The notes below the pieces were generated by a model. That model was not told the DNA's origin. It searched no databases and saw nothing but the letters and a program-made list of their open reading frames with translations. 64,000 bases of DNA from Squalus acanthias (Eukaryota). This document shows, piece after piece, positions 4,693 through 60,044 of this stretch (its first letter is position 1; each line of letters begins with the position of its first letter). Location of the stretch: the NCBI GenBank assembly GCA_030390025.1, contig CM059432.1, forward strand, positions 64,978,001 through 65,042,000, in the 5' to 3' direction. The position numbers were made by a program, and so were the translations under genes.

Positions 4693-5722
4693 AGCCCATC
4701 CCTAATTACCCTGAGAAGGTGGTGGTGAGCCACCTTTTTTGAACCACTGCAGTCCGTGTGGTGAAAGTACTCCCACAGTGCAGTTAGGTAGGGAGTCCCA
4801 TGATTTTGACTCCGCGACAATGATGGAACGGTGATATATTTAGTATGGTGTGTGACTTGGAGGAGAACTTGGAGGTGGTGGTGTTCCTGTGCGTCTGCTG
4901 CCCTTGTCCTTCTAGGTGGAAGAGGTCGTGGGTTTGGGAGCTGCTGTCGAAGAAGCCTTGGCAAGTTGCTGCAGTGTATCTTGTAGATGGTACACACTGC
5001 AGCCACGGTACGCCGGTGGTGGAGGGTGCAAATGTTTAAGGTGGTGGATGGGGTACCAATCAAGTGGGCTGCTTTGTCCTGGATAGTGTTGAGTTTCTTG
5101 AGTGCTGTTGGAGCTGCACTTATCCAGAGTATTCCATCACACTCCTGACTTGTGCTTTGTAGAAAGGCTTTGGGGAGTCAGGAGGTAAGACACTCGTTGC
5201 AGAATACCTAGCCTCTGACCTGCTCTTGTAGCCACAGTATTTATGTGGCTGGTCCAGTTAAGTTTCTGGTCAATGGTGACCCCCAGGATGTTAATGGTGG
5301 GGGATTCGGCGATGGTAATGCTGTTGAATGTCAAGGGGAGGTGGTTAGATTCTCGCTTGTTGGAGATATTCATTGCCTGGCACTTGTGTAGCACAAATGT
5401 TACGTGCCACTTATCAGCCCAAGCCTGAATGTTGTCCAGGTCTTGCTGCATGCGGGCAGGGACTGCTTCATTATCTAAGGAGTTGCAAATGGAACTGAAC
5501 ACTGAGCAATCATCAGCCAACATACCCATGTTTGACCTTATGATGGAGGAAAGGTCATTGATGAAGCAGTTCAAGACGGTTGGGCCTAGGACATGACCCT
5601 GAGGAACTCTGCAGCGATGTCCTGGGGCTGAGATGATTGGCCTCCAACCACCACAACCATCTTCCTTTGTGCTAGGTATGACTACAGCCAGTGGAGTTTT
5701 TCCCCCTGATTTCCATTAATTT
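4693..5722 (-). mobile_element. CR1/L2-group LINE 3' fragment (second family)
   Basis: ORF pieces MQQDLDNIQAWADKW, ILGVTIDQKLNWTSHI; homologous to 24341-25388. Confidence 0.88.
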
Positions 5723-14175: not shown

Positions 14176-15619
14176 ACGTTATTTTGATGCTGCCTGTTGA
14201 TTTGAATGATTTCAGTGTACAGCCGAGTGACCAACACACTGCTTCAGGCTGTGCACTCAGCAGGAGGCCCAATGTCTGTAGTGTCCCTGGAGTGAGACAG
14301 CCTTTTTTTAAAGTAAGGCTGTCATTTTAAAAGCAGTCTCGAGCCCTTAAAGGGGAACTGCCTTCTGAAAAAAAAATCATTCAAAACTAGGCAGTCTCTA
14401 GCCCTTAGAGCTCAACTACTTTCTGTTAAAAAAACATTAAAAATCATTCCAAACTAGACAGTTTTCAGCTCTTAAAGCTGAACTGCCTTCTGCATGTAAA
14501 AAATGGTAAAAGTGCTTCAGCACTAACACAAATGGCTCAACAGGCCAGGGAAAGGGCACCCAGGGTCTCACACGCAGAACTCCAGCTTTGTGCAGGGTGT
14601 CAACACTGCAAGAGAGGTCCTCTACCCACAGGGGGCCAGGAAGCCCTCCAAATGAAGGATGTGGGACCAGATCACCGAGGCCATCACTGCCAGCAGTCGC
14701 CACCAGGACTTGGCTCCAGTGAACAAATAAGTTTCATGACCTCAGACCAGTGGTCAAGGTCAGTGAATGCATCTTCAAAAGCCATCTCCTACCAACTGCA
14801 CCATTAGCCTCACACACTGCTCAATGCACGACCTCCCCCCTGCCTCCATCACTCACCTATCAACAATCTCTACCAAACACGAGGCACACCTCACATTCCT
14901 AGCTTCACCTCACCCCCTTGGAGGAGATGGTGCTGGCCATTCTTCGCAGGGGCATGACTGGCCAGTGGCGGGCTGAAAGAATACAAGATGCTGGTATCTC
15001 ATACGTTATCTTCTTCTCACAGCCCACTTCCCATTCATCCCACAATCTCTTCTGATGTACAAACTGCACATGCTGTAAGCATGCACCTCTTGCTTTCCCG
15101 CCCTCCCCTCACCACAACTCTACCCTTGTGCCTTCTTCATTTCACACACCCAAGAAAGGGAGAGGAGAGTGAAGAAGAAGAAGAAGAAACACCGTCACTC
15201 GATATCACACTCCCAGCCACCAGCTCCTCAAGGTCGTCCTGCAAGGCCATCAGCAATTTTACCCCACTTCAAGTCAGCAACATTCCACCAGCCATGCTGC
15301 AGCCACTGGGGTAACACTGTGTGACATCATCAGGATAGGCAAAGACAGTCACTAAGGGAATGCACAAGGGTGATTAATTGATTTTTTGATGTGCTTTTGG
15401 ATGCAGAAACTGATAAAGTTGGATTGGAAAGTTTGCTTTGTGGTGGCTTTTATTTCAGCATTGTGGCCAAGAGGACGCTGTGATGGTCAGTAACAGAGGG
15501 AAGGTAAGGTGTGGGACAAATGTTGAAAGGGGAATTGGGGTTGTGGTCATTGGTACCGCAGGCTGATGATTCGATCCCAGATATCTCAGGCAGAAAGGGG
15601 ATGTCTTGATTGCACATTC

Positions 15620-15861
15620 CTTCCGCTTCCTCCTCTTCCGCTTCCTCCTCTTCCGTTTCCTCCTCTTCTGCGTCTTCCTCTTCTTCGTCTTCCTCTTCTT
15701 CTGCGTCTTCCTCTTCTTCTGCGTCTTCCTCTTCTTCTGCGTCTTCCTCTTCTTCTGCGTCTTCCTCTTCTTCTGCGTCTTCCTCTTCTTCTGCGTCTTC
15801 CTCTTCTTCTGCGTCTTCCTCTTCTTCTGCGTCTTCCTCTTCTTCTGCGTCTTCCTCTTCC
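15620..15861. repeat. 18-bp minisatellite (GCGTCTTCCTCTTCTTCT)n, reading EEEEDA on the - strand
   Basis: Direct tandem array of about 9 near-perfect units plus degenerate flanking units. Confidence 0.95.
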
Positions 15862-15944
15862 CTCTGCTTCATCCTTGTCCCCTTTGCTGCCTCTGCTTCA
15901 TCCCATGTGCCCCCCCAGGACTGTGAGCAAGTTGTCTTCTCAGA

Positions 15945-28413: not shown

Positions 28414-29580
28414 TTAATTTATTGGAACCGCAGTCTGATGAGGTTCACGGACCGCCCTCCCAGAAGGCCGATTGAGTGGCTGCCTATTCCCTCGCTCCTG
28501 TTCCCCCTCCTCCTCCTCGTCTTCCTCTTCCTCCTCATCCGAGTCCGCCTCCTCCTCTCCCTCTTCCTCCTCCCCCCGAGGTGGTCCCACAGTCCCTGGT
28601 GGCAAGGGCTGGACCCTCATGATGGCCAAGTTGTGGAACATGCAGCAGACCACCACGAAATGGGACACCCACTCAGCCAAGTACTGGAGGGCTCCTCCTG
28701 AGTGGTCAAGACAGCGGAATCGTTGCTTGAGCACCCCGATAGTCTGCTTGATTATGTTCCTGGCGGCAGCATGGCTCTCATTATATGAGTGCTGAGCAGG
28801 AATGTTGGGGTTGCGGAGGGGCATGAGCCAGGTGAAGAGCAGATAGCCCTTGGCTCCGACCAGCCAGCAGCGAGCTTGATGTGGTGGCTGGAAGAGTGCT
28901 GGCACACCGGTCTGGAGCAGGATGAAGGCATCGTAGCTGCTGCCAGGATAGCGGGCATTCACATTGAGGATTCACTGTCTGTTGTTGCACACCAACTGTA
29001 CTTTAAGTGAGTGGTAGCCTTTGCGGTTACGGAAGATCTCAGGATTGTTATGCGGTGCCCGCAAAGCCACAGGTACCCTGCACCATGGGGAAGCCCGCTA
29101 TTCTGGCAAAGCCACATACATGTTCGTCCTGCTTCTCTCTGGTGATGGGGAAGGAAATGTAGTCCCTTTTTCTACTGTAGAGAGCCTCTGTGACCTCCCA
29201 GGTGCAGTGATGGATGGCGAACTGCAAGATGTTCGCTATATCTCCTGTTGCAGACTGGAAGAAACCATTGGCGAAGAAATTGAGGGTGACGGTGACCTTG
29301 ACTGCCTCTGAGAGAGCCGTGGTCGACCTGATCTGAGGCTCGCGGTCCGGATGCAGGAGGTGGCAGAGTTCGGTGACCACATCCTTGCTGAAGTGGAGCC
29401 TTCTAATGCACTGCTCCTCACTTAATTGGAGGTAGGAGACGTGCAGGGTAAGGCCTCCTGTTGAGAGCCCTGATGGCCCTCCACTTCCCTCTGGCCACAT
29501 CTTGCAATCTTTCTCGCTGCCTCCACTCCCTCTGCAGTAGATCCTGGAGGGCGAGGTCGACTGCCAGTACAGCCCCCATT
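28414..29580 (-). pseudogene. Harbinger DDE transposase pseudogene
   Basis: AVKVTVTLNFFANG, NARYPGS, IKQTIGVLKQRFRCLD; frameshifted, catalytic motifs damaged. Confidence 0.9.
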
Positions 29581-38316: not shown

Positions 38317-39314
38317 GGGGGCGATTTCCCCGGATACTTTAGGCGATAAAGAGCCTCCAAGGTAACCAAGCTGAGGTCTTAAGCTGAACCGTCGGTTTAT
38401 CCTGCGTTTAGCGCAAGAAGCCATCTTGGTAAAGGAGTTGAAGCACGTGCTAAGAATGGCCGCCTGGAAGATCGTCAAGTAGCTGATTACCACTTAAATT
38501 GCCTTCCAATGCTCATTAAGGAGGTTGCATGGCATTTTGGTGGCTAGCACTTGCCCTAATGCCCTCTCCTAACAGTGACCAGCTGATTGAGTAAACTAGT
38601 CGTTGCAGAGGATTTTGAGCGTTATTTAAAGATAGATCACCTTTTACTGTTTGCTTGCTGCTGGAGGTTTTAAGAGGGCTTTTGAAACACATCGGGAGAC
38701 TTTCTGGGACACTTAGTCAAGACTTCACCAACACTCGAGCAACATTTATTCTGGAAATTCTCTGAGGACTTCAAGTGCTGTGCTATTTTACTTTATTGGC
38801 CACCTTATGGGAGTCACCAGGAGAAAGAGAGTGCTAGGTCAATGGCACCTTGCTAGGAGCCACCCCTTGGTCTGCAGAAGGACATGAGACCAGTCAGAGC
38901 AGCACCAGCTGCTGCAGGAGAGAGGGACAGGAGGGCAAGGTGGAATCTTTCCCCCCTGTGGGTACAGGACATCCCTCCTCCTCTGGACCTCCTCCACCAG
39001 GAACGTCCAAGAACCTGTGCACCCTCACTCAGTCCCTGAACCATCCTGAAACATGCCGCTGTGTGTCAGCCAGCACAATCCACACCTTCAGTGGATGGAG
39101 CCCACTTATAGTGCTCCACGAAAATTGTGTCTATTCAGCGCTTGAGTGTTAAACCTGCAGGTGTCTCCTTTAGCACCTCCAGGCAAGTTCAAATTATAGT
39201 GATCAGCAATTAGGACTAAAATTGCATGCTAAAACCAAACTTTCAAACAGGCGTGTCTAATTCGCACAGCAACCATTTAGCGCCTGTTTTAACCCTTTCA
39301 CCAAAATAACTCCC
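38317..39314. mobile_element. Harbinger-type non-autonomous element
   Basis: Ends GGGGGCGATTTC and AAAATAACTCCC, TSD ATT, TTTAGCGC motifs. Confidence 0.7.
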
Positions 39315-39488
39315 ATTGATTCTTTGCTAGGTTGCAGTTCTCACCAGATATCCACACATGATTACTTCCAGCAGGGGTCTCTGGCTAACAATTGAGGTCA
39401 TGATGCGGAGATGCCGGTGTTGGACTGGGGTGGACAAAATTGAGAGGTCGCACAACACCAGGTTATAGTCCAACAGTTTTATTTGAAA

Positions 39489-39526
39489 TCACAAGCTTTC
39501 GGAACTATCGCTCCTTCCTCAGGTGA
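39489..39526 (-). ncRNA. Minimal type I hammerhead ribozyme motif (mirror copy)
   Basis: Reverse complement of 43055-43092. Confidence 0.72.
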
Positions 39527-39861
39527 AGTAAATTGGATACAGAATCGTCAGAGCATATATAGATGGAAAAAAAAGCATGTGTACTTTACAATTGCAGACC
39601 AATAAATTAAATCATCCTGACTATCTGCCGAGGTGTGATAAAGTTAATTAAGTCAGCCAGGAAGGTACCACATCAAAAGACATAGCAAGATACAACTGAG
39701 ACAATGAGGTGAAGTCGCAGGGGTTCTAACGTGTCAAAAGCTGCCGTCTGTATGTAAAACGAAAAGCTTTAAAAAAAATTTTTACTTTTTTACTGGGAAA
39801 ATTTTTACTTTTTTACTGGGAATCACATCTGTGAACAAGCTAACGACGACTCGAGTCCGGA

Positions 39862-41289
39862 TCACGTCATGTATCGTGACATAAACCCAAGATCCCGATT
39901 GAGACCGTCTTCATGAGTGCAGAACTTGGCTATCAGTTTCTGCTCGATGATTTTGCGTTGTCGTGTGTTTCTAAGGTTGCCTTGGAGAACGCTTACCCGC
40001 AGATCCGAGGCTGAATGTCCTTGACTGCTGAAGTGTTCCCCGACTGGGAGGTAACAATCCTGCCTGGCGATTGTTGCGCGGTGCTCGTTCATACGTTGTC
40101 TCAGTGTCTGCATGGTCTCGCCGATGTACCATGCCGCGGTGCATTCTTTCCTGCAACGTATGAGGTAGACAACGTTGGCCGAGTCACATGAGTATGTACC
40201 ATGTACCTGGTGGGTAGTGTCCTCACGTGTGATGGTGGTATCTGTGTTGATGATCTGGCATGTCTTGCAGAGTTTGCCATGGCAGGGTTGTGTGGTGTCG
40301 TGGTCGCTGTTATCCTGAAAGCTGGGTAATTTGCTGCGAACGATGGTACTTCTGAGGTTAGGCGGCTGTTTGAAGGCAAGTAGTGGAGGCGTGGGGATGG
40401 CCTTAGCGAGGTGTTTGTCGTCATCGATGACATGTTGAAGGCTGCGAAGAACATGTCGTAGTTTCTCCGCTCCGGGGAAGTACTGGACGACGTAGGGTAC
40501 CCTGTTGGTTGTGTCCCGTGTTTGCCTTCTGAGGAGGTCTATGCGATTTTTCGCTGTGGCCCGTCGGAACTGTCGATCGATGAGTCGAGCGTCATATCCC
40601 GTTCTTACGAGGGCGTTTTTCAGCGTCCGTAGGTGTCCATCGCGTTCCTCCTCGTCTGAGCAGATCCTGTGTATTCGCAGGGCTTGTCCATAGGGGATGG
40701 CTTCTTTAACATGGTTAGGGTGGAAGCTGGAGAAGTGGAGCATCGTGAGGTTGTCCGTGGGCTTGCGGTAGAGTGAAGTGCTGAGGTGTCCGTCTTTGAT
40801 GGAGATTCGTGTGTCCAGGAATGAGACCGATTCTGAGGAGTAGTCCATGGTGAGTTTGATGGTGGGATGGAACTTGTTTATGTTATCGTGTAGTCTTTTC
40901 AGTGATCCTTCGCCATGGGTCCAAAGGAAGAAAATGTCGTCGATGTATCTGGTGTACAGCGTTGGCTGGAGGTCCTGTGCAGCGAAGAAGTCTTGCTCGA
41001 ACTTGTGCATGAAGATGTTGGCGTATTGGGGTGCGAATTTGGTCCCCATGGCTGTTCCGTGTGTTTGGGTAAAAAAATGGTTGTCGAAGGTGAAGACATT
41101 GTGGTCAAGGATGAAGCGGATGAGTTGTAGGATGGCGTCTGGAGATTGGCTGTTGTTGATGTTGAGTACTGAGGCTGTTGCAGCGATGCCGTCATCGTGG
41201 GGGATACTGGTGTAGAGTGCCGATACGTCCATCGTGGCAAGGAGTGTTCCTGGTTCAACTGGTCCGTGGGTGCTGAGTTTCTGTAAGAA
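39862..41289 (-). CDS. Penelope RT + GIY-YIG endonuclease, 5'-truncated (frame open up to the fold-back point)
   Basis: MDVSALYTSIP, GTAMGTKFAP, RYIDD, VYLIRC..WYIGET; 456 aa from the first Met at 41232. Confidence 0.93.
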   Translation of the reverse strand, partial: FLQKLSTHGPVEPGTLLATMDVSALYTSIPHDDGIAATASVLNINNSQSPDAILQLIRFILDHNVFTFDNHFFTQTHGTAMGTKFAPQYANIFMHKFEQDFFAAQDLQPTLYTRYIDDIFFLWTHGEGSLKRLHDNINKFHPTIKLTMDYSSESVSFLDTRISIKDGHLSTSLYRKPTDNLTMLHFSSFHPNHVKEAIPYGQALRIHRICSDEEERDGHLRTLKNALVRTGYDARLIDRQFRRATAKNRIDLLRRQTRDTTNRVPYVVQYFPGAEKLRHVLRSLQHVIDDDKHLAKAIPTPPLLAFKQPPNLRSTIVRSKLPSFQDNSDHDTTQPCHGKLCKTCQIINTDTTITREDTTHQVHGTYSCDSANVVYLIRCRKECTAAWYIGETMQTLRQRMNEHRATIARQDCYLPVGEHFSSQGHSASDLRVSVLQGNLRNTRQRKIIEQKLIAKFCTHEDGLNRDLGFMSRYMT

Positions 41290-41291
41290 AC

Positions 41292-42719
41292 TTCTTACAG
41301 AAACTCAGCACCCACGGACCAGTTGAACCAGGAACACTCCTTGCCACGATGGACGTATCGGCACTCTACACCAGTATCCCCCACGATGACGGCATCGCTG
41401 CAACAGCCTCAGTACTCAACATCAACAACAGCCAATCTCCAGACGCCATCCTACAACTCATCCGCTTCATCCTTGACCACAATGTCTTCACCTTCGACAA
41501 CCATTTTTTTACCCAAACACACGGAACAGCCATGGGGACCAAATTCGCACCCCAATACGCCAACATCTTCATGCACAAGTTCGAGCAAGACTTCTTCGCT
41601 GCACAGGACCTCCAGCCAACGCTGTACACCAGATACATCGACGACATTTTCTTCCTTTGGACCCATGGCGAAGGATCACTGAAAAGACTACACGATAACA
41701 TAAACAAGTTCCATCCCACCATCAAACTCACCATGGACTACTCCTCAGAATCGGTCTCATTCCTGGACACACGAATCTCCATCAAAGACGGACACCTCAG
41801 CACTTCACTCTACCGCAAGCCCACGGACAACCTCACGATGCTCCACTTCTCCAGCTTCCACCCTAACCATGTTAAAGAAGCCATCCCCTATGGACAAGCC
41901 CTGCGAATACACAGGATCTGCTCAGACGAGGAGGAACGCGATGGACACCTACGGACGCTGAAAAACGCCCTCGTAAGAACGGGATATGACGCTCGACTCA
42001 TCGATCGACAGTTCCGACGGGCCACAGCGAAAAATCGCATAGACCTCCTCAGAAGGCAAACACGGGACACAACCAACAGGGTACCCTACGTCGTCCAGTA
42101 CTTCCCCGGAGCGGAGAAACTACGACATGTTCTTCGCAGCCTTCAACATGTCATCGATGACGACAAACACCTCGCTAAGGCCATCCCCACGCCTCCACTA
42201 CTTGCCTTCAAACAGCCGCCTAACCTCAGAAGTACCATCGTTCGCAGCAAATTACCCAGCTTTCAGGATAACAGCGACCACGACACCACACAACCCTGCC
42301 ATGGCAAACTCTGCAAGACATGCCAGATCATCAACACAGATACCACCATCACACGTGAGGACACTACCCACCAGGTACATGGTACATACTCATGTGACTC
42401 GGCCAACGTTGTCTACCTCATACGTTGCAGGAAAGAATGCACCGCGGCATGGTACATCGGCGAGACCATGCAGACACTGAGACAACGTATGAACGAGCAC
42501 CGCGCAACAATCGCCAGGCAGGATTGTTACCTCCCAGTCGGGGAACACTTCAGCAGTCAAGGACATTCAGCCTCGGATCTGCGGGTAAGCGTTCTCCAAG
42601 GCAACCTTAGAAACACACGACAACGCAAAATCATCGAGCAGAAACTGATAGCCAAGTTCTGCACTCATGAAGACGGTCTCAATCGGGATCTTGGGTTTAT
42701 GTCACGATACATGACGTGA
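41292..42719 (+). CDS. Penelope RT + GIY-YIG endonuclease, 5'-truncated, identical to the mirror copy
   Basis: Same 456-aa translation from 41349; frame open from FLQKLSTHG at 41292. Confidence 0.93.
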   Translation, partial: FLQKLSTHGPVEPGTLLATMDVSALYTSIPHDDGIAATASVLNINNSQSPDAILQLIRFILDHNVFTFDNHFFTQTHGTAMGTKFAPQYANIFMHKFEQDFFAAQDLQPTLYTRYIDDIFFLWTHGEGSLKRLHDNINKFHPTIKLTMDYSSESVSFLDTRISIKDGHLSTSLYRKPTDNLTMLHFSSFHPNHVKEAIPYGQALRIHRICSDEEERDGHLRTLKNALVRTGYDARLIDRQFRRATAKNRIDLLRRQTRDTTNRVPYVVQYFPGAEKLRHVLRSLQHVIDDDKHLAKAIPTPPLLAFKQPPNLRSTIVRSKLPSFQDNSDHDTTQPCHGKLCKTCQIINTDTTITREDTTHQVHGTYSCDSANVVYLIRCRKECTAAWYIGETMQTLRQRMNEHRATIARQDCYLPVGEHFSSQGHSASDLRVSVLQGNLRNTRQRKIIEQKLIAKFCTHEDGLNRDLGFMSRYMT

Positions 42720-43054
42720 TCCGGACTCGAGTCGTCGTTAGCTTGTTCACAGATGTGATTCCCAGTAAAAAAGTAAAAATTTTCCCAGTAAAAAAGTAAA
42801 ATTTTTTTTTAAAGCTTTTCGTTTTACATACAGACGGCAGCTTTTGACACGTTAGAACCCCTGCGACTTCACCTCATTGTCTCAGTTGTATCTTGCTATG
42901 TCTTTTGATGTGGTACCTTCCTGGCTGACTTAATTAACTTTATCACACCTCGGCAGATAGTCAGGATGATTTAATTTATTGGTCTGCAATTGTAAAGTAC
43001 ACATGCTTTTTTTTCCATCTATATATGCTCTGACGATTCTGTATCCAATTTACT

Positions 43055-43092
43055 TCACCTGAGGAAGGAGCGATAGTTCCGAAAGCTTGTGA
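43055..43092 (+). ncRNA. Minimal type I hammerhead ribozyme motif in the Penelope 3' UTR
   Basis: TCAC-CTGAGGA-A-GGAGC(GATA)GTTCC-GAAA-GC-TT-GTGA: core CUGANGA/GAAA, 5-bp stem II, palindromic AGCT stem III, 4-bp stem I. Confidence 0.75.
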
Positions 43093-46000
43093 TTTCAAAT
43101 AAAACTGTTGGACTATAACCTGGTGTTGTGCGACCTAACAATTGAGAGCAGGAATCTAGGTGGATTTTCCCCTTCCTAACCTTGTTATCAGTTCTCCTGG
43201 GAGGGAATTGTGAATTTGGCTAACAATCTGTCTGTGTGAAAAGGGACTTGTTAAGGAAACAGCCCAGAGAATGCTGGGCATAAAACAGTGGAAGAAATGG
43301 GTTGCCTCATATGCCATTAGGCATGGAAGAGAAGAACCACCACTGGGCACTGAGTCTAATTGTAGAGCTGCTACGACTGCCTGAGATCAGCTAATCCAGC
43401 ACATAGAGTGGAATGAACCTGGGGCCTTCCTAATCTACACTACTCAGCTACTCACTGCTTAAGCCATCACACGAGCTCTCGTAATGATAATTTGGCTGCC
43501 CCAATATTTAGTATTGTACTCTAATAGCCAAATCTACAGTATATACCAATCACATTAGTGATGTAGGGTTAGTTGAAAAGAATAAAAACATAAGAACATA
43601 AGAAATAGGAGCAGGAGTAGGCCTTTCGGCCCTTCGAGCCTGCTCCGCCATTCAATGAGATCATGGCTAATCTTCTGCCTCAACTCCATTCACCGGCCCT
43701 ATCGCCATATCCCTTGATGCCCTTACTAGTCAGAAATCTATCAACTTCTGTTTTGAATATACCCAATGACTGAGCCTCCACAGCCCTCTGGGGTAGAGAA
43801 TTCCAAAGATTCACCACCCTCTGTGTGAAGAAATTTCTTCTCATCTCAGTCCTGAATAGCCTACCCTTTATCCTGAGGCTGTGGCCCCTGGTTCTAGACT
43901 CCCCAGCCAAGGGAAACATTCTCCCAGCATCCACCCTATCAAGCCCTGTAATAATTTTGTATGCTTCAATGAGATCCCCTCTCATTCTTCTGAATTCAAG
44001 AGAATACAGGCCTAGTTTACTCAATCTCTTCTCATACGACAGTCCTGCCATCCCAGGAATCAATCTCGTGAACCTTCGTTGCACTCGCTCTATGGCAAGT
44101 ATATCCTTCCTTAGGTAAGGAGAGCAAAATTGTACACAGTACTCCAGGTGTGGTCTCACCAAGGCCCTATATAATTGGAGTAAGACTTCTTTACTCCTGT
44201 ACTCAAATCCTCTTGTAATGAAGGCCAGCATACCATTTGCCTTCCTAATTGCTTGCTGCACCTTCAGTGACTCATGTACAAGGACACCCAGGTCCCTTTT
44301 GAGCATCTGCATTCCCCAATCTTTCACCATTTAGGAAATACTCTGCCTTTCTGTTTTTTCTACCAAAGTGGATAACTTCACATTTATCCACATTATATTC
44401 CATCCGCCATGTTCTTGCCCACTCACTGTGCCTGTCGAGATCCCCCTGAAGCCTCTTCACATCCTCTTCACAACTGACGCTGCCACTTAGCTTTGTATCA
44501 TCAGCAAATTTGGAAATGTTACATTTAGTCCCCTCAACCAAATCATTGATATAGATTGTGAATAGCTAGGGCCCAAGCACCGATCCTTGCAGTACCCCAC
44601 TAGTCACAGCCTGCCATCCTGAAAAAGACCCGTTTATCCCGACTCTTTGTTTTCTGTCTGTTAATCAATTCTCAATCCATGCTAGTATATTACCCCCAAT
44701 TCCATGTGCCCTAATTTTGTTCACCAACCTCTTGTATGGGACCTTATCGAAGGCCTTCTGAAAATCCAAATATACCACATCTACCGGTTCCTCTTTGTCT
44801 ACTCCACTAGTTACATCCTCAAAGAACTCCAATAGGTTTGCCAAACAGGATTTCCCTTTCATAAATCCATGTTGACTCTGCCCAATCTTACCATTAGTTT
44901 CTAAGTGTCCAGTTATTGCATCCTTTATAATAGATTCCAGCATTTTCCCAACTACTGATGTGAGGCTAAGAGGTCTGTATTTCCCCGTTTTCTCTCTCCC
45001 TCCTTTCTTAAATAACGGGGTTACATTTGCTATCCTCCAATCTGCAGGAACCGTTCCAGAATCTATAGAATTTTGGAAGATGACAACCAATGCGTCCACT
45101 ATCCCAATGGCCACCTCTTTCAAAACCCTAGGATGTAGGTCATCCAGTCCTTGGGATTTATCGACTTTTAGTCCCATTAATTTTGCTAGTACTGTTTTTT
45201 TATGATAATAATTTCTTTAAGTTCCTCATTATCGCCACAACCTTGGTTTTCTCGTATTCCTGGGAGGTTTTTTGTGTCTTCCTCCGTGAAGACAGAAACA
45301 AAGTATTTATTTAATTTCTCTGCCTTTTTCTCATTCCCCATTATAAATTCTCTCGTCTCTGACTGTAAAGGACCTACATTTACCTTTGCCAGTCTTTTCC
45401 TTTTCACATACCTATAGAACCTTTTACAATCCGTTTTTATATTTTTTGCTAGTTGGTGCTTATATTCCATTTTCCCTTTTTTTTTAAATCAATTTCTTGG
45501 TCCCCCTTTGCTGATTTCTAAAAAGATCCCAATCCTCAGGTTGACCGCTTTTTCCAGCAACTTTATAAGCTTCCTCCTTTGACTTTAATTTCTTTTGTTA
45601 GCCATCGTTGGATCACTTTTCCTTTTGGGTGTTTATGCCCTATGTTTGTTGCAAATTATGCATTATTTCCTTGAATGTTAGCCATTGTATGTCCACCTTC
45701 ATAACTTTTAGTGTAGTCTCTCAATCTACCATGGCCAACTTGTCCCTCATACCCTTGTAGTTTCCTCTGTTTAGATTGAAGACCTTAGTTTCAGATTGGA
45801 CTACATCACTCTCAAACTTAATGTAAAATTCAATCATATTATGGTCACTTGTCCCTAAAGGCCCCTTTATCACAAGATTATTGATTAGCCCTTTCTCATT
45901 ACACAGTACCAGATCCAGAATAGCCTGTTCCCTGGTTGGTTCCTCCACATACTGATCCAGGAAACCATCTTGCATGCATTCCAAGAATTTGTCCTCCACA

Positions 46001-46764
46001 CCATTAGTGGTAATTTGATTTGCCCAGTCAATATGTAGATTGAAGTCCCCCATGATTACTGTATTGCCCTTGTTACATGCACTTGTAATTCCTTGATTGA
46101 TACTGTGCCCTACATTACCACTACTGTTTGGTGGCCTATACAAATCCCACCAATGTTTTCCTCCCTTTGCTGTTTCTTAGCTCCACCCAAACTGATTCCA
46201 GTTCTACATCACGATCTGCCGAGCCAAGATCTTTTATCTCTACCATACCGATCTCATCCCTTATTAACAGCACTCCTCCACCTCCTTTTCCTTTTTATCT
46301 GTCCTTCCTAAATGTTGAGTACCCTGTAACATTCAGTTCCCAGCTTTGGTTACCCTGCAACCATGTCTCTGTAATGGCAATTACATCATACCCATTTACT
46401 TCTATTTGTGCTATTAATGCATCCACCTTGTTGCGAATGCTACATGCATTTAGATAAAGTGCCTTCAACTTTGCCTGTTTAATATTTTTCTGCACTTTGA
46501 CCCTCTTTACTGTTGGCCTTTGTTTCTGCTCCCTATTAGTTTTGCTGACTACTTTTCTAACTTGCACTGCCAGCTTTGTTTCTCTCCGTTCTGGGCCCAC
46601 ACTTAAGTTCCCAGCCCCCTGACAAACTAGTTTAAATCCTTCCCAGCAGCACTAGCAAACCCCCCTGTGAGGATATTGGTCCCGGTTCTGCCGAGGTGTA
46701 ATCCGTCCAGCTTGTACAGGTCCCACCTTCCCCAGAATCGGTCCCGATGCCTCAGGAATTTAAA

Positions 46765-48894: not shown

Positions 48895-51330
48895 GGAGAT
48901 AGATTAGGCCTGTTTTTGGGTGCAGAATAGATGGCATGCTCGTAGTATGCACCTGATCACGTGGGTGCAAGGAAATCACCAAATTGGTCCGCCATCCTCC
49001 TTTGCCTAGCGTAGACGGAATGCCAGCACTGTTCGTGCTGTTGAATGCCAATTTGCCTAATGAGAGCGGGTATATAGGGCATCCCTGAGGCCATTTAAAG
49101 GCAGTCTGCACCTCTTAAAGGGGAGGTGCACTTGGCTGCAATCAGCTGCAAGTACCGATTAAAGTAGCAGGCGGAGGAGAACCTAGAAGGGCCCCCTGTT
49201 TTTTGAACACAGCGTTGGAGGTGCTGGTGGAAAAGGTTGGCTAGATCAGGGACATCCTATTTCCTTCCAGTGGTAAAAGCTCTCCAGGCAAGTTTTTCAG
49301 CAAGCAGTCTGAGGTGGCAGAGTGGGTAAGCGCAAGGAGTATTGCACCCAGGATATGGCTCCAATGCAGAAAGAAATTCAATGATCTGACAAGCGCTGCT
49401 AAGGTAAGGCTCATAACTTATCCCTCTCATTACTCTCTGCTTAGCCCTGCACTACCTGTAGCACCAGTACTCAGAACCGTTCACACCCCGTCTCCCCATC
49501 ACTCTCCTCCAACCACAGCAGCACACGTCCCTCAACCTCCTTTTGCTGCTACTGCAACACTCTACACATGCTATTGTCCTCATTATTACTTCACTCACAC
49601 CCACACATCTGTGCCATCTTTCACACACCTCTTATACTACTCTGATATGCATCTCCTCAATAAATCTCATTAGGCTATTGCTACACAAACCAACTTCACC
49701 ACACTGCCTTCTTTCTTGCAAGACAAGCTGGCATGCAGTATGAGGGAGCATGCGAGGACAGAAGGAGAGGGAGTGATCATCCATGTGCTGTCTCCACTGG
49801 AAGACCAAGTAATGGATTAGTGGATGGGGCATTAGGAGCCTGCTGACTGACGAGGTTGGAGGACACGTCATACAGGGTTTCCCACCATCTTACCCTTGTT
49901 CCTCCTGACTGAAATCTAACCTTCACACATGATGCATGACAAAGAGCTGCTGCTTTCAGCAGCCTTAAGAATGTAAGAACATAAGAAATAGGAGCACGAG
50001 TAGGCCATTTGGCCCTTCAAGCTTGCTCCGCCATTCAATAAGATCTACTACCTCAACTCTACCTTCCTGCACTATCCCCAGATCCCTTGATTCCCTTTGT
50101 ATCTAAAAATGTATCGATCTCTGTCTTGAATATACTCAACGACTGAGCATCCACAGCACTCTGGGGTAGACAATTCCAAAGATTCACAACCCTTTGAGCG
50201 AAGAAATTTCTCCTCATCTCAGTCCTAAATGGCCGACCCCTTATTCTGAGACTATGACCCCTACTTCTAGACTCCCCAGCCAGGAGAAACATCCTCCCAG
50301 CATCTACCCTTTCAAGCCCCTTAAGAATTTTATACATTTCAATAAGCTCACCTCTCATTCTTCTAAACTCTAGGGAATATAGGCCGGGTCTACTCAATCT
50401 CTACTCATAGGACAATCCCCTCATCCCAGGAATCAGTCTAGTGAAGCTGTGTTGCCATCCCTCTATGGCAAGTATGTCCTTCCTTAGCTAAGGAGACCAA
50501 AACTGTGCACAGTACTCCAGGTGTAGTCTCACCAAGGCCCTATACAATTGCAGTACGACTTCTTTACTCTTGTACTCCAATTCTTTTGTAATAAAGGCTA
50601 ACATACCATTTGCCATCCTAATTGCTTGCTGTACCTGCATGTTAACTTCCTGTGATTCGTGTACAAGCACACCGAGGTCCCTCTGAATAGTGACATTTCC
50701 CAATCTCTCACCATTTACAAAATATTCTGCTTTTCTATTTTTCTTACCAAAGTGGATAACTTCACATTTCTCCACATTATATTTCATCTGCCACGATTTT
50801 GCCCACTCACTTAACCTTTCTATATCCCTTTGTAGCCTCTTTGCGTTCTCCTCACAACTTACTTTCCAACCTATGTTTTGTATCGTCAGCAAATTTGGAT
50901 ACATTACACTCGGTCCCCTCATCCAAGTCATTGATATAGATTGTAAATAGCTGAGGCCCAAGCACTGATCCTTGTGGTACCCCCCTAGTCAATCATCTGT
51001 TTCTGCTTACACTTGCCACTAAATGCGAACCATTGTCCCTCTCTTCCATTTCTGTTCCAGAAGTTTGACAGGGACCTGAGGGAGCAAATGAAGAGGAGGA
51101 CAGGACACTAGATGATGAAGCAGCACTCAAACTTATCCTTGCAGGCACCAGCTGAGAGACTGGCACTCCATGTAGTTCAGAGGGTGGACTAGAAGGGTCG
51201 GCACTGGGAAATGCACCCAGCACTAATGTGCAGGAGCAAGGAAAGGGAAATAGAATGGTTGAGGAAGCAGCTCTACATGGAGAGCTCTTGCATCCTAGCC
51301 TTGCTGCAGGGTCCCCGGCTGCAGTCTCCT
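48895..51330 (+). mobile_element. Old Harbinger Myb-gene remnant interrupted by CR1
   Basis: APRIWLQCRKKFNDLTSAAK followed by GTAAGG at 49404; exon-3-like sequence at 51060-51320; boundaries approximate. Confidence 0.72.
49965..50992 (-). mobile_element. CR1 3' fragment
   Basis: RT C-terminal ORFs and tail. Confidence 0.92.
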
Positions 51331-53540: not shown

Positions 53541-53644
53541 CTGAAATTGATAGGAATCAGAAACCCTAGGCCCGACTGATTAGTAGCAGATAAATACAAA
53601 CCACCACTACCTACAGACCCACGGAGAACAGACAGTAAATTGTA

Positions 53645-55388
53645 TAAGAACATAAGAAATAGGAGCAGGAGTCGGGCATTCGGCCCCTCGAGCCTGCTCC
53701 GCCATTCAATAAGATCATGGCTGATCTGATCTTGGCCTCAACTCCACTTTCCTGCCTGTTCCCCATAACCCTTGACTCCCCTGTAGCTCAAATATCTGTC
53801 TATCTCAGCCTTGAATATATTCACTGATTAAGCCTCCACAGCTCTCTGGGGTAGAGAATTCCAAAGATTCACAACCCTCTGAGAGAAAAAATTCCTCCTC
53901 ATCTCCGTCTTAAATGGGCGGCCACTTATCCTGAAACTATGCCCCCGAGTTCTAGATTCCCCCATGAGGGGAAACATTCTCTCAGCATCTACACTGTCAA
54001 GCCCCCTCAGAATCTTATGTTTCAATAAGATCACCTCTCATTCTTCTAAACTCCAATGAGTATAGGCCCAACCTGCTCAACCTTTCCTCATAAGACAACC
54101 CTTTCAGCTCAGGAATCAACCTAGTGAACATTCGCTGAACACCCTCCAATGCAAGTATATCCCTCCTTAAATAAGGTGACCAAAACTGTATGCAGTACTC
54201 CAATGTACAATGCCCTGTACAGTTGTAGCAAGCCTTCCCTACTTTTATACAACATCCCCCTTGCAATAAAGGCCAACATTCCATTTGCCTTCCTAATTAC
54301 TTGCTGTACCTGCATGCTAACTTTTTGTGTTTCATGTACGAGGACACCCAGATCCTTCTGCAGCATTCTGTAGTCTCTCTCTATTTAAAAAATATTTTGC
54401 TTTTCTATTCCTCCTACCAAAGTGGATAACCTCACACTTTCCCACATTATACTCCATCTGCCAAATTTTTGCCCACTCACTTGACAGGGTAGATGCTGAG
54501 AGAATGTTTCCCCTCATGGGGGAATCTAGATCCCTTTGCAGACCTGTGTCCTCCTCACAACTTGCTTTCCCATCTATCTGTGTATCATCAGCAAATTTGG
54601 CTACAGTACACTCGGTCACTTCATCCAAGTCATTAATATAGATTGTAAATAGTTGAGGCACCAGCACTTATCCCTGTGGCACCCCGCTAGTTACAGTTTG
54701 CCAACCTGAAAATGACCCATTTATCCCGACTCTCTTTTTTCTGTTAGTTAGCCAATCCTCAACCATGCTAAATATTACCCCCAACACCGTGAGCTCTTAT
54801 CTTGTGCAGTAACCTTTTATGTGGCACCTTATCGAATGCCTTTTGGAAATCCAAATACACTACATCTACTGGTTCCCCTTGATCCACCCTGCTCGTTACA
54901 TCCTCAAAGAACTCTAATAAATTTGTCAAACACGATTTCTCTTTCATAAAACCATGTTGACTCTGCTTAATTGTATTATGATTTTCTAAACGTCCTGCTA
55001 CTACTCCCTTAATAATGGATTCCAGCATTTTCCCAATGACAGATGTTCGGCTAACTAGCCTATAGTTTCCTGCTTTCTCCCTCCTTTCTTGAACAGGGGC
55101 ATTACATTTGCGGTTTTCCAATCCACTGGGACCTTTCCAGAATCTAGGTAATTTTGGAAGATTACAACCAATGCATCCACTACCTCTGCAGCCTCCTCTT
55201 TTAAGACCCTAGGATGCAGGCCATCAGGTGCAGGGGACTTCTCAGCCTTTAATCCCATTAGTTTGCCGAGTACATTTTCTCTAGTGATAGTGATTGTTTT
55301 AGGTTCCTCCCTCCCTTTTGCCCCTTGATTATCTACTATTATTGGGATGCTTTTAGTGTCTTCCACTGTGAAGACAGATACAAAATAT
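53645..55388 (-). mobile_element. CR1 RT region with a 51-bp templated inverted insertion
   Basis: RT motifs ([19 protein letters not shown]) and tail. Confidence 0.92.
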
Positions 55389-55909
55389 AGCACTGTTAAC
55401 AAAGTAAAAGTATCATGGTACTTTAGAAAAGGGATTGGACACTTAGACACAAGCTTTGGAGGGAGGGTTAGGGAACTGGACCGAGGGTGCAGTTGAAGAG
55501 CTAGGTTTTGAGAAGGCTTTTTGAAAGTGAGGAGACATGTAAAAAGACAAGGGGGTAGAAATTAGGTCGCGCCCCATTTGGGGCGCAAATATCGTCCGCG
55601 CGCAAATATTAGCGCCTGGCGCTAATTATCGGCACTGACAGGAAACTTCACTTTTACCGCCCCGGGAGGTGAGTGGAGCGCTAAATTAGGCGCTGCACAC
55701 CTCTCTTAAGGCGCAAAGGCCTAGGAGTGAGGCGCTAACTCAGCGCACGAGCGCAGCGCAGCTGCTGCCAGTTAGCGAGGGAACACAGACACACTGGCGC
55801 CGGACACTTCTTAAAGCGGGGGGGGGCCACTTGCTCCCCAGCCACACCCTGCTCATTGCAGCCTTGAATCTCAGCCTGGAGAGACCTGTAATCCATTTTG
55901 CTGCCAAGC

Positions 55910-57906
55910 ATGGAGAGGGTGAGAGAACGCGCTCATCGCTTCACCGAGCGGGCCTTGGATGCTCTGGTTGACGCAGTGGAGCGCAGACGATGCATGCTGT
56001 TCCCGGAGAGTGGCAGGAGGCCTTTGCCACGCGAGTTCAGAAGAGTGTGGAGGGAGGTGGCTCAGAGCGTCTCCTCCAGGAGCATGGTGCCCAGGACCCA
56101 TGTCCAGTGCCGCAAAAAGTTCAACGACCTCACTCGGGTCGTCAGGGTGAGTGGCTTTTTCTCAATACCTCTCCATCCCTCCATCTCAACCTCACTCTAT
56201 GGCCAGAGGGTCTTAAAACCCCAATGCACAACACTCATGCAACACCTATGGCCCTTTCATCAAACACACACACACATTCCACACTTTGCATACAGTAAGG
56301 GCTATTCAGCTATGGGAGGCACATCAGGCAAGACCATGGCTGCATACAGTAAGGGCTATTCACCTATGGGAGGCACATCAGGCAAGACCATGGCTGTATA
56401 TTGACTCAGATGCTGTCCTTTTTCTTGCAGGCTAAGCTGGCTCATAATCGGAGACAGCAGCAACGGACGGGTGGAGGGCGGCTTCAGCTGCAACCCCTCA
56501 GCGATCTGGAGGAGCGCGTCCACAGGATTGTGGCAAGCCGGGTGATCGGTCCCGTCGCCACTGGAGACGCCGACCCCGTTGTGGACAGCAATGGTAAGGT
56601 CATCACCTTTTTGTCCTCTGTCCTTCCACTTGTCCCTCACAATACCAGCCTTTGACACTTTCAATCCAACTTGCTAACTCGCTGCACTTATTCCTCCCTT
56701 ACTGCCACCCTGTCCTCACGCTAAAGCCACTCTTGTACCTCCCTGCTTTCAGATGGTGATTCACCAGCTGAGGAGATGGTCCCTGAAGCTGCCACTGGGA
56801 GTGATGCTGCAGCTGAGGAGGAAGAGGAAGCCGGAGCATCAGTGCCACCCTCTCCCGAGGAAGCCCATGGCCACACTGGGAACACGCCTTCCCCGGAGGG
56901 GAGCAGGGGGGAAGGGGCTGATGATGGTGAAGTTCCAGGACCCAGCGGGCTGCAGCAACGCCATGGGGGGGGGAGGGAAGAACGGGGGAGCAGGGGGGAA
57001 GGGGCTGATGATGGTGAAGTTCCAGGACCCAGCGGGCTGCAGCAACGCCATGGGGGGGGGAGGGAAGAACGGGGGAGCAGGGGGGAAGGGGCTGATGATG
57101 GTGAAGTTCCAGGACCCAGCGGGCTGCAGCAACGCCATGGGGGGGGGAGGGAAGAACGGGAGCCTTCTCCCCAGAGGGAGAGTATGCCAGACACTCCTAA
57201 TGCAATGGACGCAGAGGAGGAGCGGCTGATTGCAGAAATGAACAGCCAGGCGGTGGTCATGCACACTGAGCTCATGGGTGCAGTGGGAAGGGTGCCCGAA
57301 TGCATTGAGGCACTGGCAAGGAGTGTGGAGCACTTCGCTGTAGCACAGGCGGATGCCACACTAAAGCTTACTGCTGCAATTCAGTCACTGGCTGCCAGGA
57401 ACCCATCTGAGCCTGCTCTCATGCAGACTCAGATTGAGGCCATGCGAGCACTGACCGCTGCCATCCTCGATGGTTCGTGCACATGTCCCCGGGGCTGTCA
57501 CCGCGCCGCAGCAGGCCAGCAATCTGTTCTCCGGCAAATTGCTCCGGATGCTGAAGTGCTGCCCCGTGGGAGTGCCAGTGTGTCGGGCGAGCAGGGAGTT
57601 GCTGTCCTCTCTCACGATGACAGCATTCCTGCTGCCAACACTGTCACTTCTCCACTGCACTTGCCACCGCCTGTAGGACAGACTGCTGCCGCCCATGCAG
57701 AGTTGGTGCAGTCTGCAGCCGGGCCCTCCAGGCCCAGAAGTGGTCGAGGCCGTCCTTCAGGGGCATCTGCAGTGTCAGGGTCTGACAAGCAGCAGCCTTC
57801 CACCAGCCTTGCTGCAGCCACTGAGGTCCCATTACGGAGGAGCAGTAGGGTTAGAAGGGGGGAAGTGCGCAAGGGAAGGAGATCACCCTCGAAGGGCAAA
57901 AAGTAG
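55910..57906 (+). CDS. Harbinger Myb/SANT-like (trihelix, NAIF1-like) protein; exons 55910-56146, 56431-56593, 56753-57906; 517 aa
   Basis: RFTERALDALV..WREVA..RTHVQCRKKFNDL; GT-AG introns of phase 0 and 1 join into one stop-free 1554-nt frame; basic C-terminus. Confidence 0.9.
56287..56400. repeat. 54-bp tandem duplication in Myb intron 1
   Basis: TGCATACAGTAAGGGCTATTCA.. at 56287 and 56341. Confidence 0.92.
56899..57159 (+). repeat. In-frame 87-bp x3 tandem repeat
   Basis: GSRGEGADDGEVPGPSGLQQRHGGGREER three times. Confidence 0.95.
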
Positions 57907-58200: not shown

Positions 58201-59361
58201 CTAGAAGCGGCTTGCTATTAGTCGTTGACGGACGGCCCTTGCAGTTTGACCATTGTGGGCCGCCCTCCTGCCTTGGTGCTGCTGCTGATCATCGTCCTCG
58301 GCCTGTTCCTCCTCTTCCTCCTCCTCCTCTTGTGGTGCTGCAAGGCCTGGTGGCATTGGCTGCGTCCTGAGGATTGCCATGTTGTGCAACATGCAGCACA
58401 CCACTACGAATTTGGAAACTTGCTCAGGCGAGTACTGCAGGGCTCCTCCGGAATGGTCCAGACAGCGGAATCGTTGTTTGAGCACGCCGATTGTGCGCTC
58501 AATAATGTTCCTCGTTGCTTGTTGGCTTTCCTGGTACCGCAGCTCAGCAGGGGTGTTTGGCGCACGGAGCGGTGTCATCAGCCAGGTGCTCAATGCGTAC
58601 CCCTTGTCCCCCAGAAGCCAACCAACTGGCTGATGCGGTGCCTCGAAAATTTCTGCCACAGTACTCTGGCGCAGGATGAAAGCATCGTGGCAGCTGCCCG
58701 GATAGTGGGCATTGACAGCGAGAATCACCTGTCTGTGGTCACAGACCAACTGCACATTCAAGGAATGGAACCCCTTTCTGTTCCGGAACTCCTCTGCATT
58801 CTCTCGCGGAGCACGCAAAGCCACATGCGTGCAGTCAATGGCGCCCTGCACCATGGGGAAGCCCGCTACCCTCGCAAAGCCCATAGCACGGTCATGCTGC
58901 TTGTCTGGGGTCATAGGGAAGGAGATGAAGTCTCGTCTCCTTGTGAAGAGGGCATTGGTGACCTGCCGGATGCAGCGATGCACCGCAAACTGGGAGATAT
59001 TGGCGAGGTCCCCAACAGCAGCTTGGAATGAGCCAGTGGCGTAGAAGTTCAAAGCCACTGTGACCTTCACTGCCACCGACAGAGACGTCCTGGACCTCAG
59101 CTGAGGCTGCAGATCTGGCTGCAGCAGGTGGCAGAGCTCAGTGACCACCTCCTTGCTGAATCGCAGCCTTCGCAAACACAGCTCCTCGGACATGTGGATG
59201 TAGGAGAGCTGTTCACGATATACCCTGGGAGGGTAAGCTCTCCTGTACATGCGCCTGATGGGCCTCCTCCGTCTGGCCATCATTGCCACTCTCTGTCTGC
59301 GTCTCACTCTCCTCCGATTGAGCTGGAGCAGGACGACGCCCCCAATCATTGCAGCCCCCAT
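58201..59361 (-). CDS. Harbinger (HARBI1-like) DDE transposase, 386 aa
   Basis: GAIDCTHV, YPGSCHD, LLGDKGY, IERTIGVLKQRF; no stops; TATTTAAA upstream near 59560. Confidence 0.96.
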   Translation of the reverse strand: MGAAMIGGVVLLQLNRRRVRRRQRVAMMARRRRPIRRMYRRAYPPRVYREQLSYIHMSEELCLRRLRFSKEVVTELCHLLQPDLQPQLRSRTSLSVAVKVTVALNFYATGSFQAAVGDLANISQFAVHRCIRQVTNALFTRRRDFISFPMTPDKQHDRAMGFARVAGFPMVQGAIDCTHVALRAPRENAEEFRNRKGFHSLNVQLVCDHRQVILAVNAHYPGSCHDAFILRQSTVAEIFEAPHQPVGWLLGDKGYALSTWLMTPLRAPNTPAELRYQESQQATRNIIERTIGVLKQRFRCLDHSGGALQYSPEQVSKFVVVCCMLHNMAILRTQPMPPGLAAPQEEEEEEEEQAEDDDQQQHQGRRAAHNGQTARAVRQRLIASRF

Positions 59362-60044
59362 CTTCTCTTTGCCAGAAAAGTAATGAGGTACAGCAACGAA
59401 AGTAGCAGCAAAGTTAGGATGAACTAGGCAAAACTACCTCACAAAGCGTTGAGTCAATGTAGAAGTCTCTCTCTCTCTCTCTCCGAATCTCTCTCTCTCT
59501 CTCAGAACGAGTGGTGCATAAATGTCGACCACAGAAAAAGACAGGAAGAGGCCCCCTTTAAATAGCGCCCCCCCCAGCCCCACACCGATTGATAACGTTC
59601 CAGTCTTCCGGTCGTTGGAAGCGCCAGGCGGTAAGGCAGGGGGCGCCACTCAATTTCCGCTCCGGGGCGCCCCAAGGGCGTTGCACCACGGAATGACGTC
59701 ACAATCTGCGCGCGCAGGTGGTCGCAGCGGTAAGTTTTAGCGCCGCCGCACAATCTCAAGTTAAGTTCTCGAGCGGCGCAAACAGCGCTGCGCCCGGGCG
59801 TTAGCGCCTTAACGCCCCATTAGCGCCCATTTAAGGCGCTAACGGGAGGCGCAACCAACTGAATTTTTACCCCAAGGGCTTTCAGAAAAGAACTAAAAAA
59901 TGCTGGGTAGGGCATGAATACTGAAGGCTCTAACATTGATGGTGCAGCAGAGCGATGCATATAACTAACGGCAAAAAAGCAGAGGATGCAAGCTGGGACT
60001 TAGGGCTGAAGGTGGTTGCAGAGGAAGAATGCAGTAAAGTCATA

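Follow-up and report, generated by a model that had tools for sequence, protein, structure and literature searches.

A spacer-less palindromic insertion of a young Penelope-like element in Squalus acanthias and the probable priming of both target strands

Background

How does a Penelope-like element (PLE) place two inverted copies of itself, head to head, in a single target site? A 3.7-kb palindrome in the genome of Squalus acanthias raises this question. The formation of inverted and tailed PLE insertions is called undefined in PMC8557442, and the steps that follow priming are described as unvalidated in PMC11167929. Inverted-pLTR insertions of PLEs with endonuclease (EN+) are documented in the accessible text of PMC8557442, PMC3846280 (Pen2a/Pen3a, Adineta vaga) and PMC8969392. 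As far as these parts go, they share with the shark locus an inverted, 5'-truncated copy at the 5' end in head-to-head orientation, one target site duplication (TSD) around the whole, a tail of 30-40 bp at one end and a palindrome at the inverted junction. Unlike them, the shark arms extend over kilobases, and their starting points nearly coincide. Self-priming is proposed for such junctions in PMC3846280. A comparable system is PAc, a Poseidon element of Anolis carolinensis, which in vitro nicks and extends both strands, uses two start sites bounding the tail and is a predicted dimer; the available text of that report (PMC11167929) offers no explanation of inverted insertions.

Results and discussion

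Anatomy of the palindrome

The window, i.e. the whole stretch of DNA analysed, comprises 64,000 nt (GCA_030390025.1, contig CM059432.1, 64,978,001-65,042,000, forward strand). In the insertion studied, two 5'-truncated copies of a very young PLE, presumably of Neptune type, meet head to head. The features are as follows.

39385..39396, plus strand: left TSD copy, 12 bp, CTAACAATTGAG; single copy in the empty allele
39397..41289, minus strand: left arm, 5'-truncated and tailed PLE copy, element positions -1887 to +5
39397..39444, minus strand: one-sided tail, spanning the interval between the upstream reverse transcriptase (RT) start site and its downstream counterpart at the ATG of the next unit
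39862..41289, minus strand: left truncated ORF, residues 418-892 including stop; C-terminal half of RT, CX4CxxC linker, GIY-YIG with CCHH
41276..41292, plus strand: 7-bp hairpin with 3-nt loop at the left-arm end
41290..41291, plus strand: central AC, blunt head-to-head junction with an offset of 2 nt
41290..43134, plus strand: right arm, 5'-truncated and tailless PLE copy from -1889 to the upstream RT start site
41292..42719, plus strand: right truncated ORF, identical to the left ORF, including stop
42802, plus strand: sole mismatch between the arms (partner 39779)
43059..43084, plus strand: putative hammerhead core with a short stem, mirrored in the left arm
43135..43146, plus strand: right TSD copy, 12 bp, CTAACAATTGAG; single copy in the empty allele

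Self-comparison of the window pairs 39445-41289 with 41292-43136 and thus bears out the 1845-bp arms, reverse complements about 41290/41291, of an initial annotation made from the sequence alone. That annotation had seen no mismatch; there is one, between 39779 and 42802 at an A-run/T-run boundary (A5T8 versus A4T9). Positions 43135-43136 are common to the right arm and the TSD, and the extra 3' end of the left arm, formerly given as 48 nt, measures 48-50 nt depending on how these 2 nt are counted. No further copy of the TSD occurs in the window. What had been read as a 2-nt loop is native right-arm sequence (GAC TTC in the element), and for this reason the arm starts lie 2 nt apart, at element positions -1889 and -1887 as counted from the ATG of the next unit; the join is blunt and microhomology is absent.

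The two translations agree from the same RT residue onward, as had been noted. The two RT/GIY-YIG ORFs are present and identical, but each covers only residues 418-892 of 892 aa and is devoid of the N-terminal domain and the DKG motif. The insertion at 39397..43134 is a dead fragment without promoter; taken alone, the locus is an ordinary one of known architecture. Among 147 non-repeat frames scanned with Pfam (of 189) there were no matches, and no host exon was found, which lends no support to the intronic position assumed in the initial annotation. Over the insertion, Rfam returned only sub-threshold matches of hairpin type at the palindrome centre, which we dismissed as an effect of symmetry, and no hammerhead match; the motif CUGANGA...GAAA at 43059..43084, with its short stem, may be a hammerhead core, a ribozyme of this type in the pLTR being a trait of EN+ PLEs.

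The element and its classification

Full copies (L033, L040, L049) carry a single 892-aa ORF with matches to RVT_1 (E=1.4e-8) and GIY-YIG (E=1.5e-4; 22.5 bits against a cut-off of 22.6); no solved structure matched the protein. Read from the translation, two Cys lie between residues 790 and 809 with two His downstream, and a CX4CxxC linker at residue 753 stands between RT and EN. According to PMC8557442, EN+ PLEs are marked by a CCHH motif whose two Cys lie between GIY and YIG, and a zinc-finger-like CX2-5CxxC RT-EN linker defines the Neptune and Nematis clades. Further EN+ PLE traits are a tandem 3138-nt unit (L054), a pLTR (L033), 5' truncation, one-sided tails and TSDs. Judged by these motifs, the element is a C-terminal EN+ PLE, probably of the Neptune or Nematis clade; the choice of Neptune follows motif and host. 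RT, linker, GIY-YIG with CCHH, the GxKF and DKG motifs, tandem units, pLTR and tail are common to PLEs of these clades, from which the shark family differs in being very young and abundant. The label 'Poseidon' was dropped, as the Penelope/Poseidon clade is defined by absence of the linker zinc finger present here.

Internal 39-mers have 4158 and 2722 exact matches in the genome; the family is young and has thousands of copies in this shark. A terminal 39-mer has 42,267 matches, but this figure does not serve as a copy number, since older families and other species also carry the last ~55-130 nt.

Empty and filled alleles

A search for the empty-site allele, which the initial annotation had suggested, succeeded in contigs of another sample. 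A 283-nt contig of run X1 joins both flanks (record 168-283 equals window 39281-39396, record 1-179 equals window 43135-43312) with an overlap of 12 nt, which is the single TSD and confirms that one 12-bp TSD flanks the whole. The insertion is therefore recent and polymorphic. Together with arms of one template lineage, the single TSD and the empty allele sustain the earlier claim of one very recent PLE insertion event. A 625-nt contig of run X6 (organism B) breaks off from the left-flank sequence at 39394 and does not continue into the element; a match of this contig to the right flank was not seen at 95%.

The filled allele was seen in no public run searched (X5 was covered to ~55%), no RNA run with the locus was listed, and a second haplotype of the locus was not found in the assembly. 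The missing filled allele and second haplotype would fit an artefact in which a fold-back read or a mis-join had mirrored one copy. Such an artefact is nevertheless very improbable: at both outer junctions the sequence is an exact fit to the empty allele about a single 12-nt TSD, the outer ends of the arms are the start sites peculiar to the family, one base distinguishes the arms, and the same architecture recurs in old copies whose arms have diverged by up to 2.7%.

Inverted insertions across the family

A genome scan, likewise suggested earlier, returned further palindromic copies; the structure is not unique. Arm starts lie at most 25 nt apart in 49 other fetched insertions, one of them a perfect 3.3-kb palindrome. 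Near-symmetric junctions (≤25 nt) account for 49/127 of those mapped, a sample enriched for such cases by design; over half of the inverted events have offsets above 25 nt, reaching kilobases. Pairs with arms below 300 nt stand outside the offset statistics because their families are not mapped by the reference used. Complex or secondarily interrupted loci (L089, L091, L108, L114, L131, L227) stand outside the tail and microhomology counts, L227 being retained in the second fixed-sum set.

The outer ends of inverted insertions fall on the two RT start sites, and 110 of the 112 with both ends mapped carry exactly one tail. Tails are absent from 19/22 mapped single insertions, and in none of 41 single insertions does the 5' end carry an aborted inverted tail. 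Full TSDs (at least 11 nt) surround 98/112 inverted and 17/41 single insertions, counts obtained by differing detection methods; a higher share in inverted insertions is expected if both target ends are primed. TSDs are 71% AT.

Could such pairs go back to two independent insertions, or to recombination or gene conversion that took place afterwards between copies lying close together? The abundance of the family speaks for it. Yet one TSD encloses the whole, and the arms are concordant at 3099/3112 diagnostic sites (13 discordant, versus 32% between insertions). Among the first 100 matches listed there was one tail-to-tail pair only versus many head-to-head, and arm divergence shows no difference between near-symmetric and spaced pairs (p=0.73). 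We give this origin hardly any credence.

Arm nesting bears on the route proposed in the initial annotation, in which a nascent cDNA folds back and is recopied across the full length of the insert; in a self-priming variant, an antisense template would serve as its own primer. At the locus itself the arms are near-identical and of one haplotype, and the right arm would fit inside the left apart from 2 nt, which could match by chance (1 in 16). Fold-back demands nested arms, however. Among 110 events the tailed arm is 5'-shorter in 59, longer in 45 and equal in 6; the demand thus fails in 59/110, here by 2 nt only. Fold-back also leaves unexplained why a second end lies at the other RT start site, with full TSD, in 110/112 events. 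With a stem of at least 2 nt and a loop of 3 nt as junction criterion, the geometry needed for priming is missing at 9 junctions, this locus included. Given the one-tail rule, the non-nested arms, the junctions too tight for a priming hairpin and the coupled truncation described below, fold-back of a single cDNA fits the family poorly and is largely refuted at that level; for the present locus we rate it as most unlikely. The family data contradict the self-priming reading of PMC3846280.

The two arms of an event tend to be truncated together. In a fixed-sum test, the two arm starts lay within 25 nt of each other in 30/50 events versus 4.0 expected (50 of 73 sites fetched); at a second position it was 12/30 versus 1.6, and an independent sample gave 8/17 within 50 nt versus 1.5 by permutation. 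Coupling is weaker in long arms (1/5; 4/23 within 40 nt versus 1.2, p=0.02; 1/2). A truncation hotspot near -700 was rejected as cause of the spike at small offsets because the spike returns at -780 and at scattered positions. Where the offset is 60 nt or less, the shorter arm is the tailed one in 35 versus 16 cases (median +7 nt; p=0.011, post hoc). Lockstep synthesis of equal lengths on two RNAs was also rejected: it predicts offsets near +40, which only 8/57 small offsets fit. Neither coupled truncation points nor a strict one-tail rule was found in the accessible text of PMC8557442, PMC3846280 and PMC8969392.

Junctions and the hairpin question

Insert-free junctions show microhomology of at least 2 nt in 48/84 cases. 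The perfect palindromes L093, L151, L158, L230 and L236 (1.64-kb arms) are centred on native self-complementary 4-6-mers, from which it follows that two separate ends must anneal.

A combined route, in which both strands are primed, the longer cDNA folds back or switches template and its sense copy anneals to the second cDNA, would derive the inner arms from one cDNA. It accounts for the single tail, for arms that are not nested, for small offsets and full TSDs, and for the near-absence of differences between arms; 16 of the 49 near-symmetric junctions have a geometry compatible with hairpin priming (28 are uninformative, having an insert or less than 2 nt overlap), and a 7-bp hairpin is possible at the present one. 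At 9 junctions including 41290/41291 (offset 2, overlap 0), with L236 as a tenth, the offset is nevertheless smaller than microhomology plus 3 nt, and if the local hairpin had been extended, the centre of the palindrome would lie at 41283-41285 instead of 41290/41291. We consider this route unlikely, though less so than the alternatives above. A 3-nt snap-back at the left-arm hairpin could have preceded joining, a weak suggestion made post hoc.

Probable twin priming

Both nicked strands probably prime RT, one per start site and in all likelihood on one RNA, with the cDNA ends joined afterwards. At this locus both outer ends lie at RT start sites and the TSD is intact. A haplotype common to both arms of an event (13 of 3112 diagnostic sites discordant; no difference in 12,078 nt of 13 young events) speaks for this reading. 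The enzyme, probably a dimer, would nick both strands ~12 nt apart. Each 3'-OH would then prime one cDNA, either at the upstream start site (~-40, tailless) or at the downstream one (~+1, giving the tail). Most likely a single RNA serves as template for both cDNAs, the tailed one behind the other, and the two may often halt at nearly the same place, at an RNA break or a stall. Joining of their 3' ends would be blunt, through microhomology of 1-7 nt or by way of a short insert, after which gap filling would finish the palindrome.

In LINE-1 twin priming, both ends of a staggered cut prime RT and microhomology serves to join the resulting cDNAs; because the second primer starts at an internal site, the product is an inversion without duplication. 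Both shark cDNAs would start at the 3' end instead and leave a duplicated palindrome. Twin priming would have the enzyme extend both target strands in one event; for PAc, extension is documented per strand (PMC11167929). Like the shark element, PAc has an RT start site on each side of the tail and AT-rich targets; it differs in clade, in the absence of the linker zinc finger and in start sites inside the ORF rather than at or just before the ATG.

Several observations weigh against twin priming. It was with a member of the Poseidon clade, and not with this family, that the in vitro data were obtained. Thirteen young events show 0 arm differences in 12,078 nt versus 0.17% (L043, with 1 difference, is left out of this count), which may be fewer than two independent RT passes leave. 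The weaker coupling in long arms, the offsets above 25 nt in more than half of the events, the lack of aborted inverted tails (0/41 single insertions), the 16/49 junctions compatible with hairpin priming, the 7-bp hairpin possible at the present one and the absence of the filled allele from the runs searched point the same way.

Carried further, twin priming may make PLE integration an obligate division of labour, in which one RNA carries an RT active site at each of the two start sites, each primed by one cut strand; the two would run in file and stop together, with spacer-less palindromes reaching several kilobases as a routine product. We regard the chances of this extension as slightly short of even. 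If it were true, tail, inverted pLTR and junction palindrome would share one mechanism in place of self-priming, and about a hundred or more palindromes with arms above 550 nt would persist in the shark genome.

The head-to-head architecture is already published. The coupling rule, coupled arm lengths and PLE twin priming were not found in the literature searched, in which subscription papers were few. Quantitative rules drawn from the family, namely a single tail for each event, non-nested arms, coupled stops and self-complementary junction centres, speak for twin priming and against self-priming; an in vitro system already exists in which to test them, and the coupling rule makes the open question of PLE mechanism testable.

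Such palindromes had been thought exceptional and short-lived. The share of near-symmetric junctions given above and zero-offset insertions with arms diverged by up to 2.7% do not support this for the shark. The family is a natural set of long spacer-less palindromes, both polymorphic and old, useful for questions of tolerance, dsRNA or breakage in vertebrate genomes.

Structure of the insertion and its element

The palindromic insertion at window positions 39397-43134 consists of two head-to-head arms of a Penelope-like element (PLE), flanked as a whole by one 12-bp target-site duplication (TSD). The arms pair over 1845 bp about an axis at 41290/41291; the perfect complementarity proposed in the initial annotation is broken by one mismatch (39779 vs 42802), located where an A-run meets a T-run, a boundary that is variable within the family. 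Arm positions were referred to L054, a real full-length tandem copy (unit 3138 nt, ORF 892 aa), and counted from the ATG of the next unit. The left arm runs from -1887 to +5 and the right one from -1889 to about -45, the coding part of each being residues 418-892 only. The two bases at the centre, AC, belong to the native sequence of the right arm, so the supposed 2-nt loop is a blunt join with an offset of 2 nt between the arm 5' starts.

Pfam identifies reverse transcriptase (RT) and GIY-YIG domains, and the protein carries GxKF, DKG, YIDD, a CX4CxxC linker and a CCHH motif. PMC8557442 gives this linker as a mark of Neptune/Nematis and its absence as a mark of Penelope/Poseidon. The nearest named proteins are from sharks (81-94% identity). 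The family is young and abundant: a search gave 1378 candidates, of which 40 were scored, with 100% identity after rounding among the matches listed, and two internal 39-mers match exactly 4158 and 2722 times. The ORF is intact in copies L033, L040 and L049. In one shark epn2 gene model (P0015) a piece of the element protein is fused in (94% identity over 29%), probably through exonisation or as an annotation error.

A recent, polymorphic insertion

The empty allele is present in sequencing run X1 as a single 283-nt contig (depth 15.9), which matches 39281-39396 and 43135-43312 with an overlap of 12 nt and thus carries the TSD once; run X3, from the same sample, has the identical break point. 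The insertion is therefore recent. The assembly holds no second haplotype of the locus. An artefact fits poorly and is most improbable: each outer junction agrees with the empty allele, the arms terminate at the two sites characteristic of the family, and the architecture recurs in old copies whose arms have diverged. It is almost certain that the feature is a genuine, recent and polymorphic insertion of known architecture, its filled allele being seen in the assembly and in none of the runs. In the right flank, runs X1 and X5 have a one-base insertion at 43247 relative to the window.

Palindromes are common and persist

Minus/plus pairs numbered 18 among the first 100 matches of the -550 motif. 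In the 17 analysed, arm starts lay at most 25 nt apart in 4 (1.0 by permutation) and at most 50 nt apart in 8 (1.5 by permutation). We further searched for a motif and its reverse complement at set spacing, where truncation points independent of each other should scatter the offsets evenly. With a spacing of 300-330 nt, offsets were at most 25 nt in 30 of 50 sites fetched from 73 (4.0 expected), and at 460-490 nt in 12/30 (1.6 expected); long arms gave a weaker spike (1/5, 1/2 and, at most 40 nt, 4/23; p=0.02). Separate insertions of the two arms are a poor fit and very hard to credit.

Further palindromic copies are thus plentiful, including the near relatives L064 (arms 2.66 kb, offset 20) and L236 (arms 1.64 kb, offset 0, centred on native TCGA). 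Extrapolating from 4 per 100 matches to 4158 gives, as a very rough estimate, 50-400 near-perfect palindromes genome-wide whose arms are >550 nt, and the present locus is near the long end of a class common in Squalus acanthias. Such palindromes had been regarded as normally unstable; many persist here, as some zero-offset copies have arms up to 2.7% diverged and arm divergence is alike in symmetric and spaced pairs (p=0.73).

Loci L227 (G000:C2295) and L108 each show two mirrored inverted junctions, a palindrome of palindromes that may be real or mis-assembled. Among loci L031-L146 (e.g. L061, L070, L074, L100) there are a great many head-to-head pairs only 100-250 nt long; they belong to an older or related family with only the last ~100-130 nt in common, and are likewise one-tailed with TSDs of 12-13 bp. 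The terminal ~55 nt are abundant also in data from two other species.

Family-wide rules and mechanism

The tail, an extra 3' stretch between the upstream and downstream RT start sites, is on exactly one arm in 110 of 112 inverted events, absent in 2 and on both arms in none; 19/22 single insertions lack it. Arms end in two zones, roughly -46 to -33 and -4 to +5. A full TSD flanks 98/112 inverted and 17/41 single insertions, determined by differing methods. Unrelated loci have the same TSD sequence (L042/L095/L103/L105; L068/L069; L035/L040/L082), a hint that insertion favours certain targets within other repeats, CR1 for example.

Non-nested arms are the usual case: at its 5' end the tailed arm is shorter in 59 events, with 45 in which it is longer and 6 in which the two are equal; at small offsets it is shorter in 35 vs 16 (median +7, post hoc). 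Both arms always share a haplotype (13/3112 diagnostic sites discordant vs 32% between insertions), and in young events they differ at 0/12,078 nt vs 0.17%. Microhomology of at least 2 nt occurs at 48/84 junctions without insert. At 9 junctions the offset is below overlap + 3 nt, and 4 of these are perfect palindromes centred on self-complementary 4-6-mers.

The 59 shorter tailed arms require a second priming, since a folded-back cDNA copies only what it already holds. Pure fold-back of a single cDNA, the mechanism first envisaged, therefore fits poorly and has very little probability, and the family-wide rules favour twin priming, in which both nicked target strands prime RT. According to PMC11167929, a Poseidon protein nicks and extends both strands, uses two start sites bounding the tail and is a predicted dimer. 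Probably, and most simply, each target strand would prime at one of the two sites; the upstream-site cDNA would lead, both cDNAs would copy the same RNA and halt at one break or stall, and joining of their ends would create the palindrome. A variant in which one cDNA additionally folds back or switches template before annealing to the second is consistent with the near lack of differences between young arms and with a hairpin geometry allowed at 16/49 symmetric junctions; a 7-bp hairpin can form at the present junction, but its extension would place the palindrome centre elsewhere, and we consider this variant unlikely.

The architecture is like that of PLEs already described with an inverted truncated copy, one-sided tail and junction palindromes (PMC8557442, PMC8969392, PMC3846280), which PMC3846280 reads as self-priming. 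The portion seen of a retrozyme preprint adds nothing on inverted or tailed PLE insertions, and within partial literature coverage, main texts only, we found no publication that treats twin priming in PLEs or a coupling of their truncation points. What makes the case interesting is the set of family-wide rules, which favour twin priming and are testable.

Other features of the window

140-1343, 43590-46176, 49973-50988 and 53644-55561: LINE fragments ending in (ATAAGAAC)n, 73-96% alike, presumably CR1-type
58201-59433 (-): uninterrupted 410-aa frame, in our assessment resembling a Harbinger/PIF transposase
28414-29578: degraded relatives of the 410-aa frame
55892-57906 and 3425-4694: frames which we take to be Myb-like partners
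15593-15902: array of 9-nt units, reading EEEEDA on the minus strand
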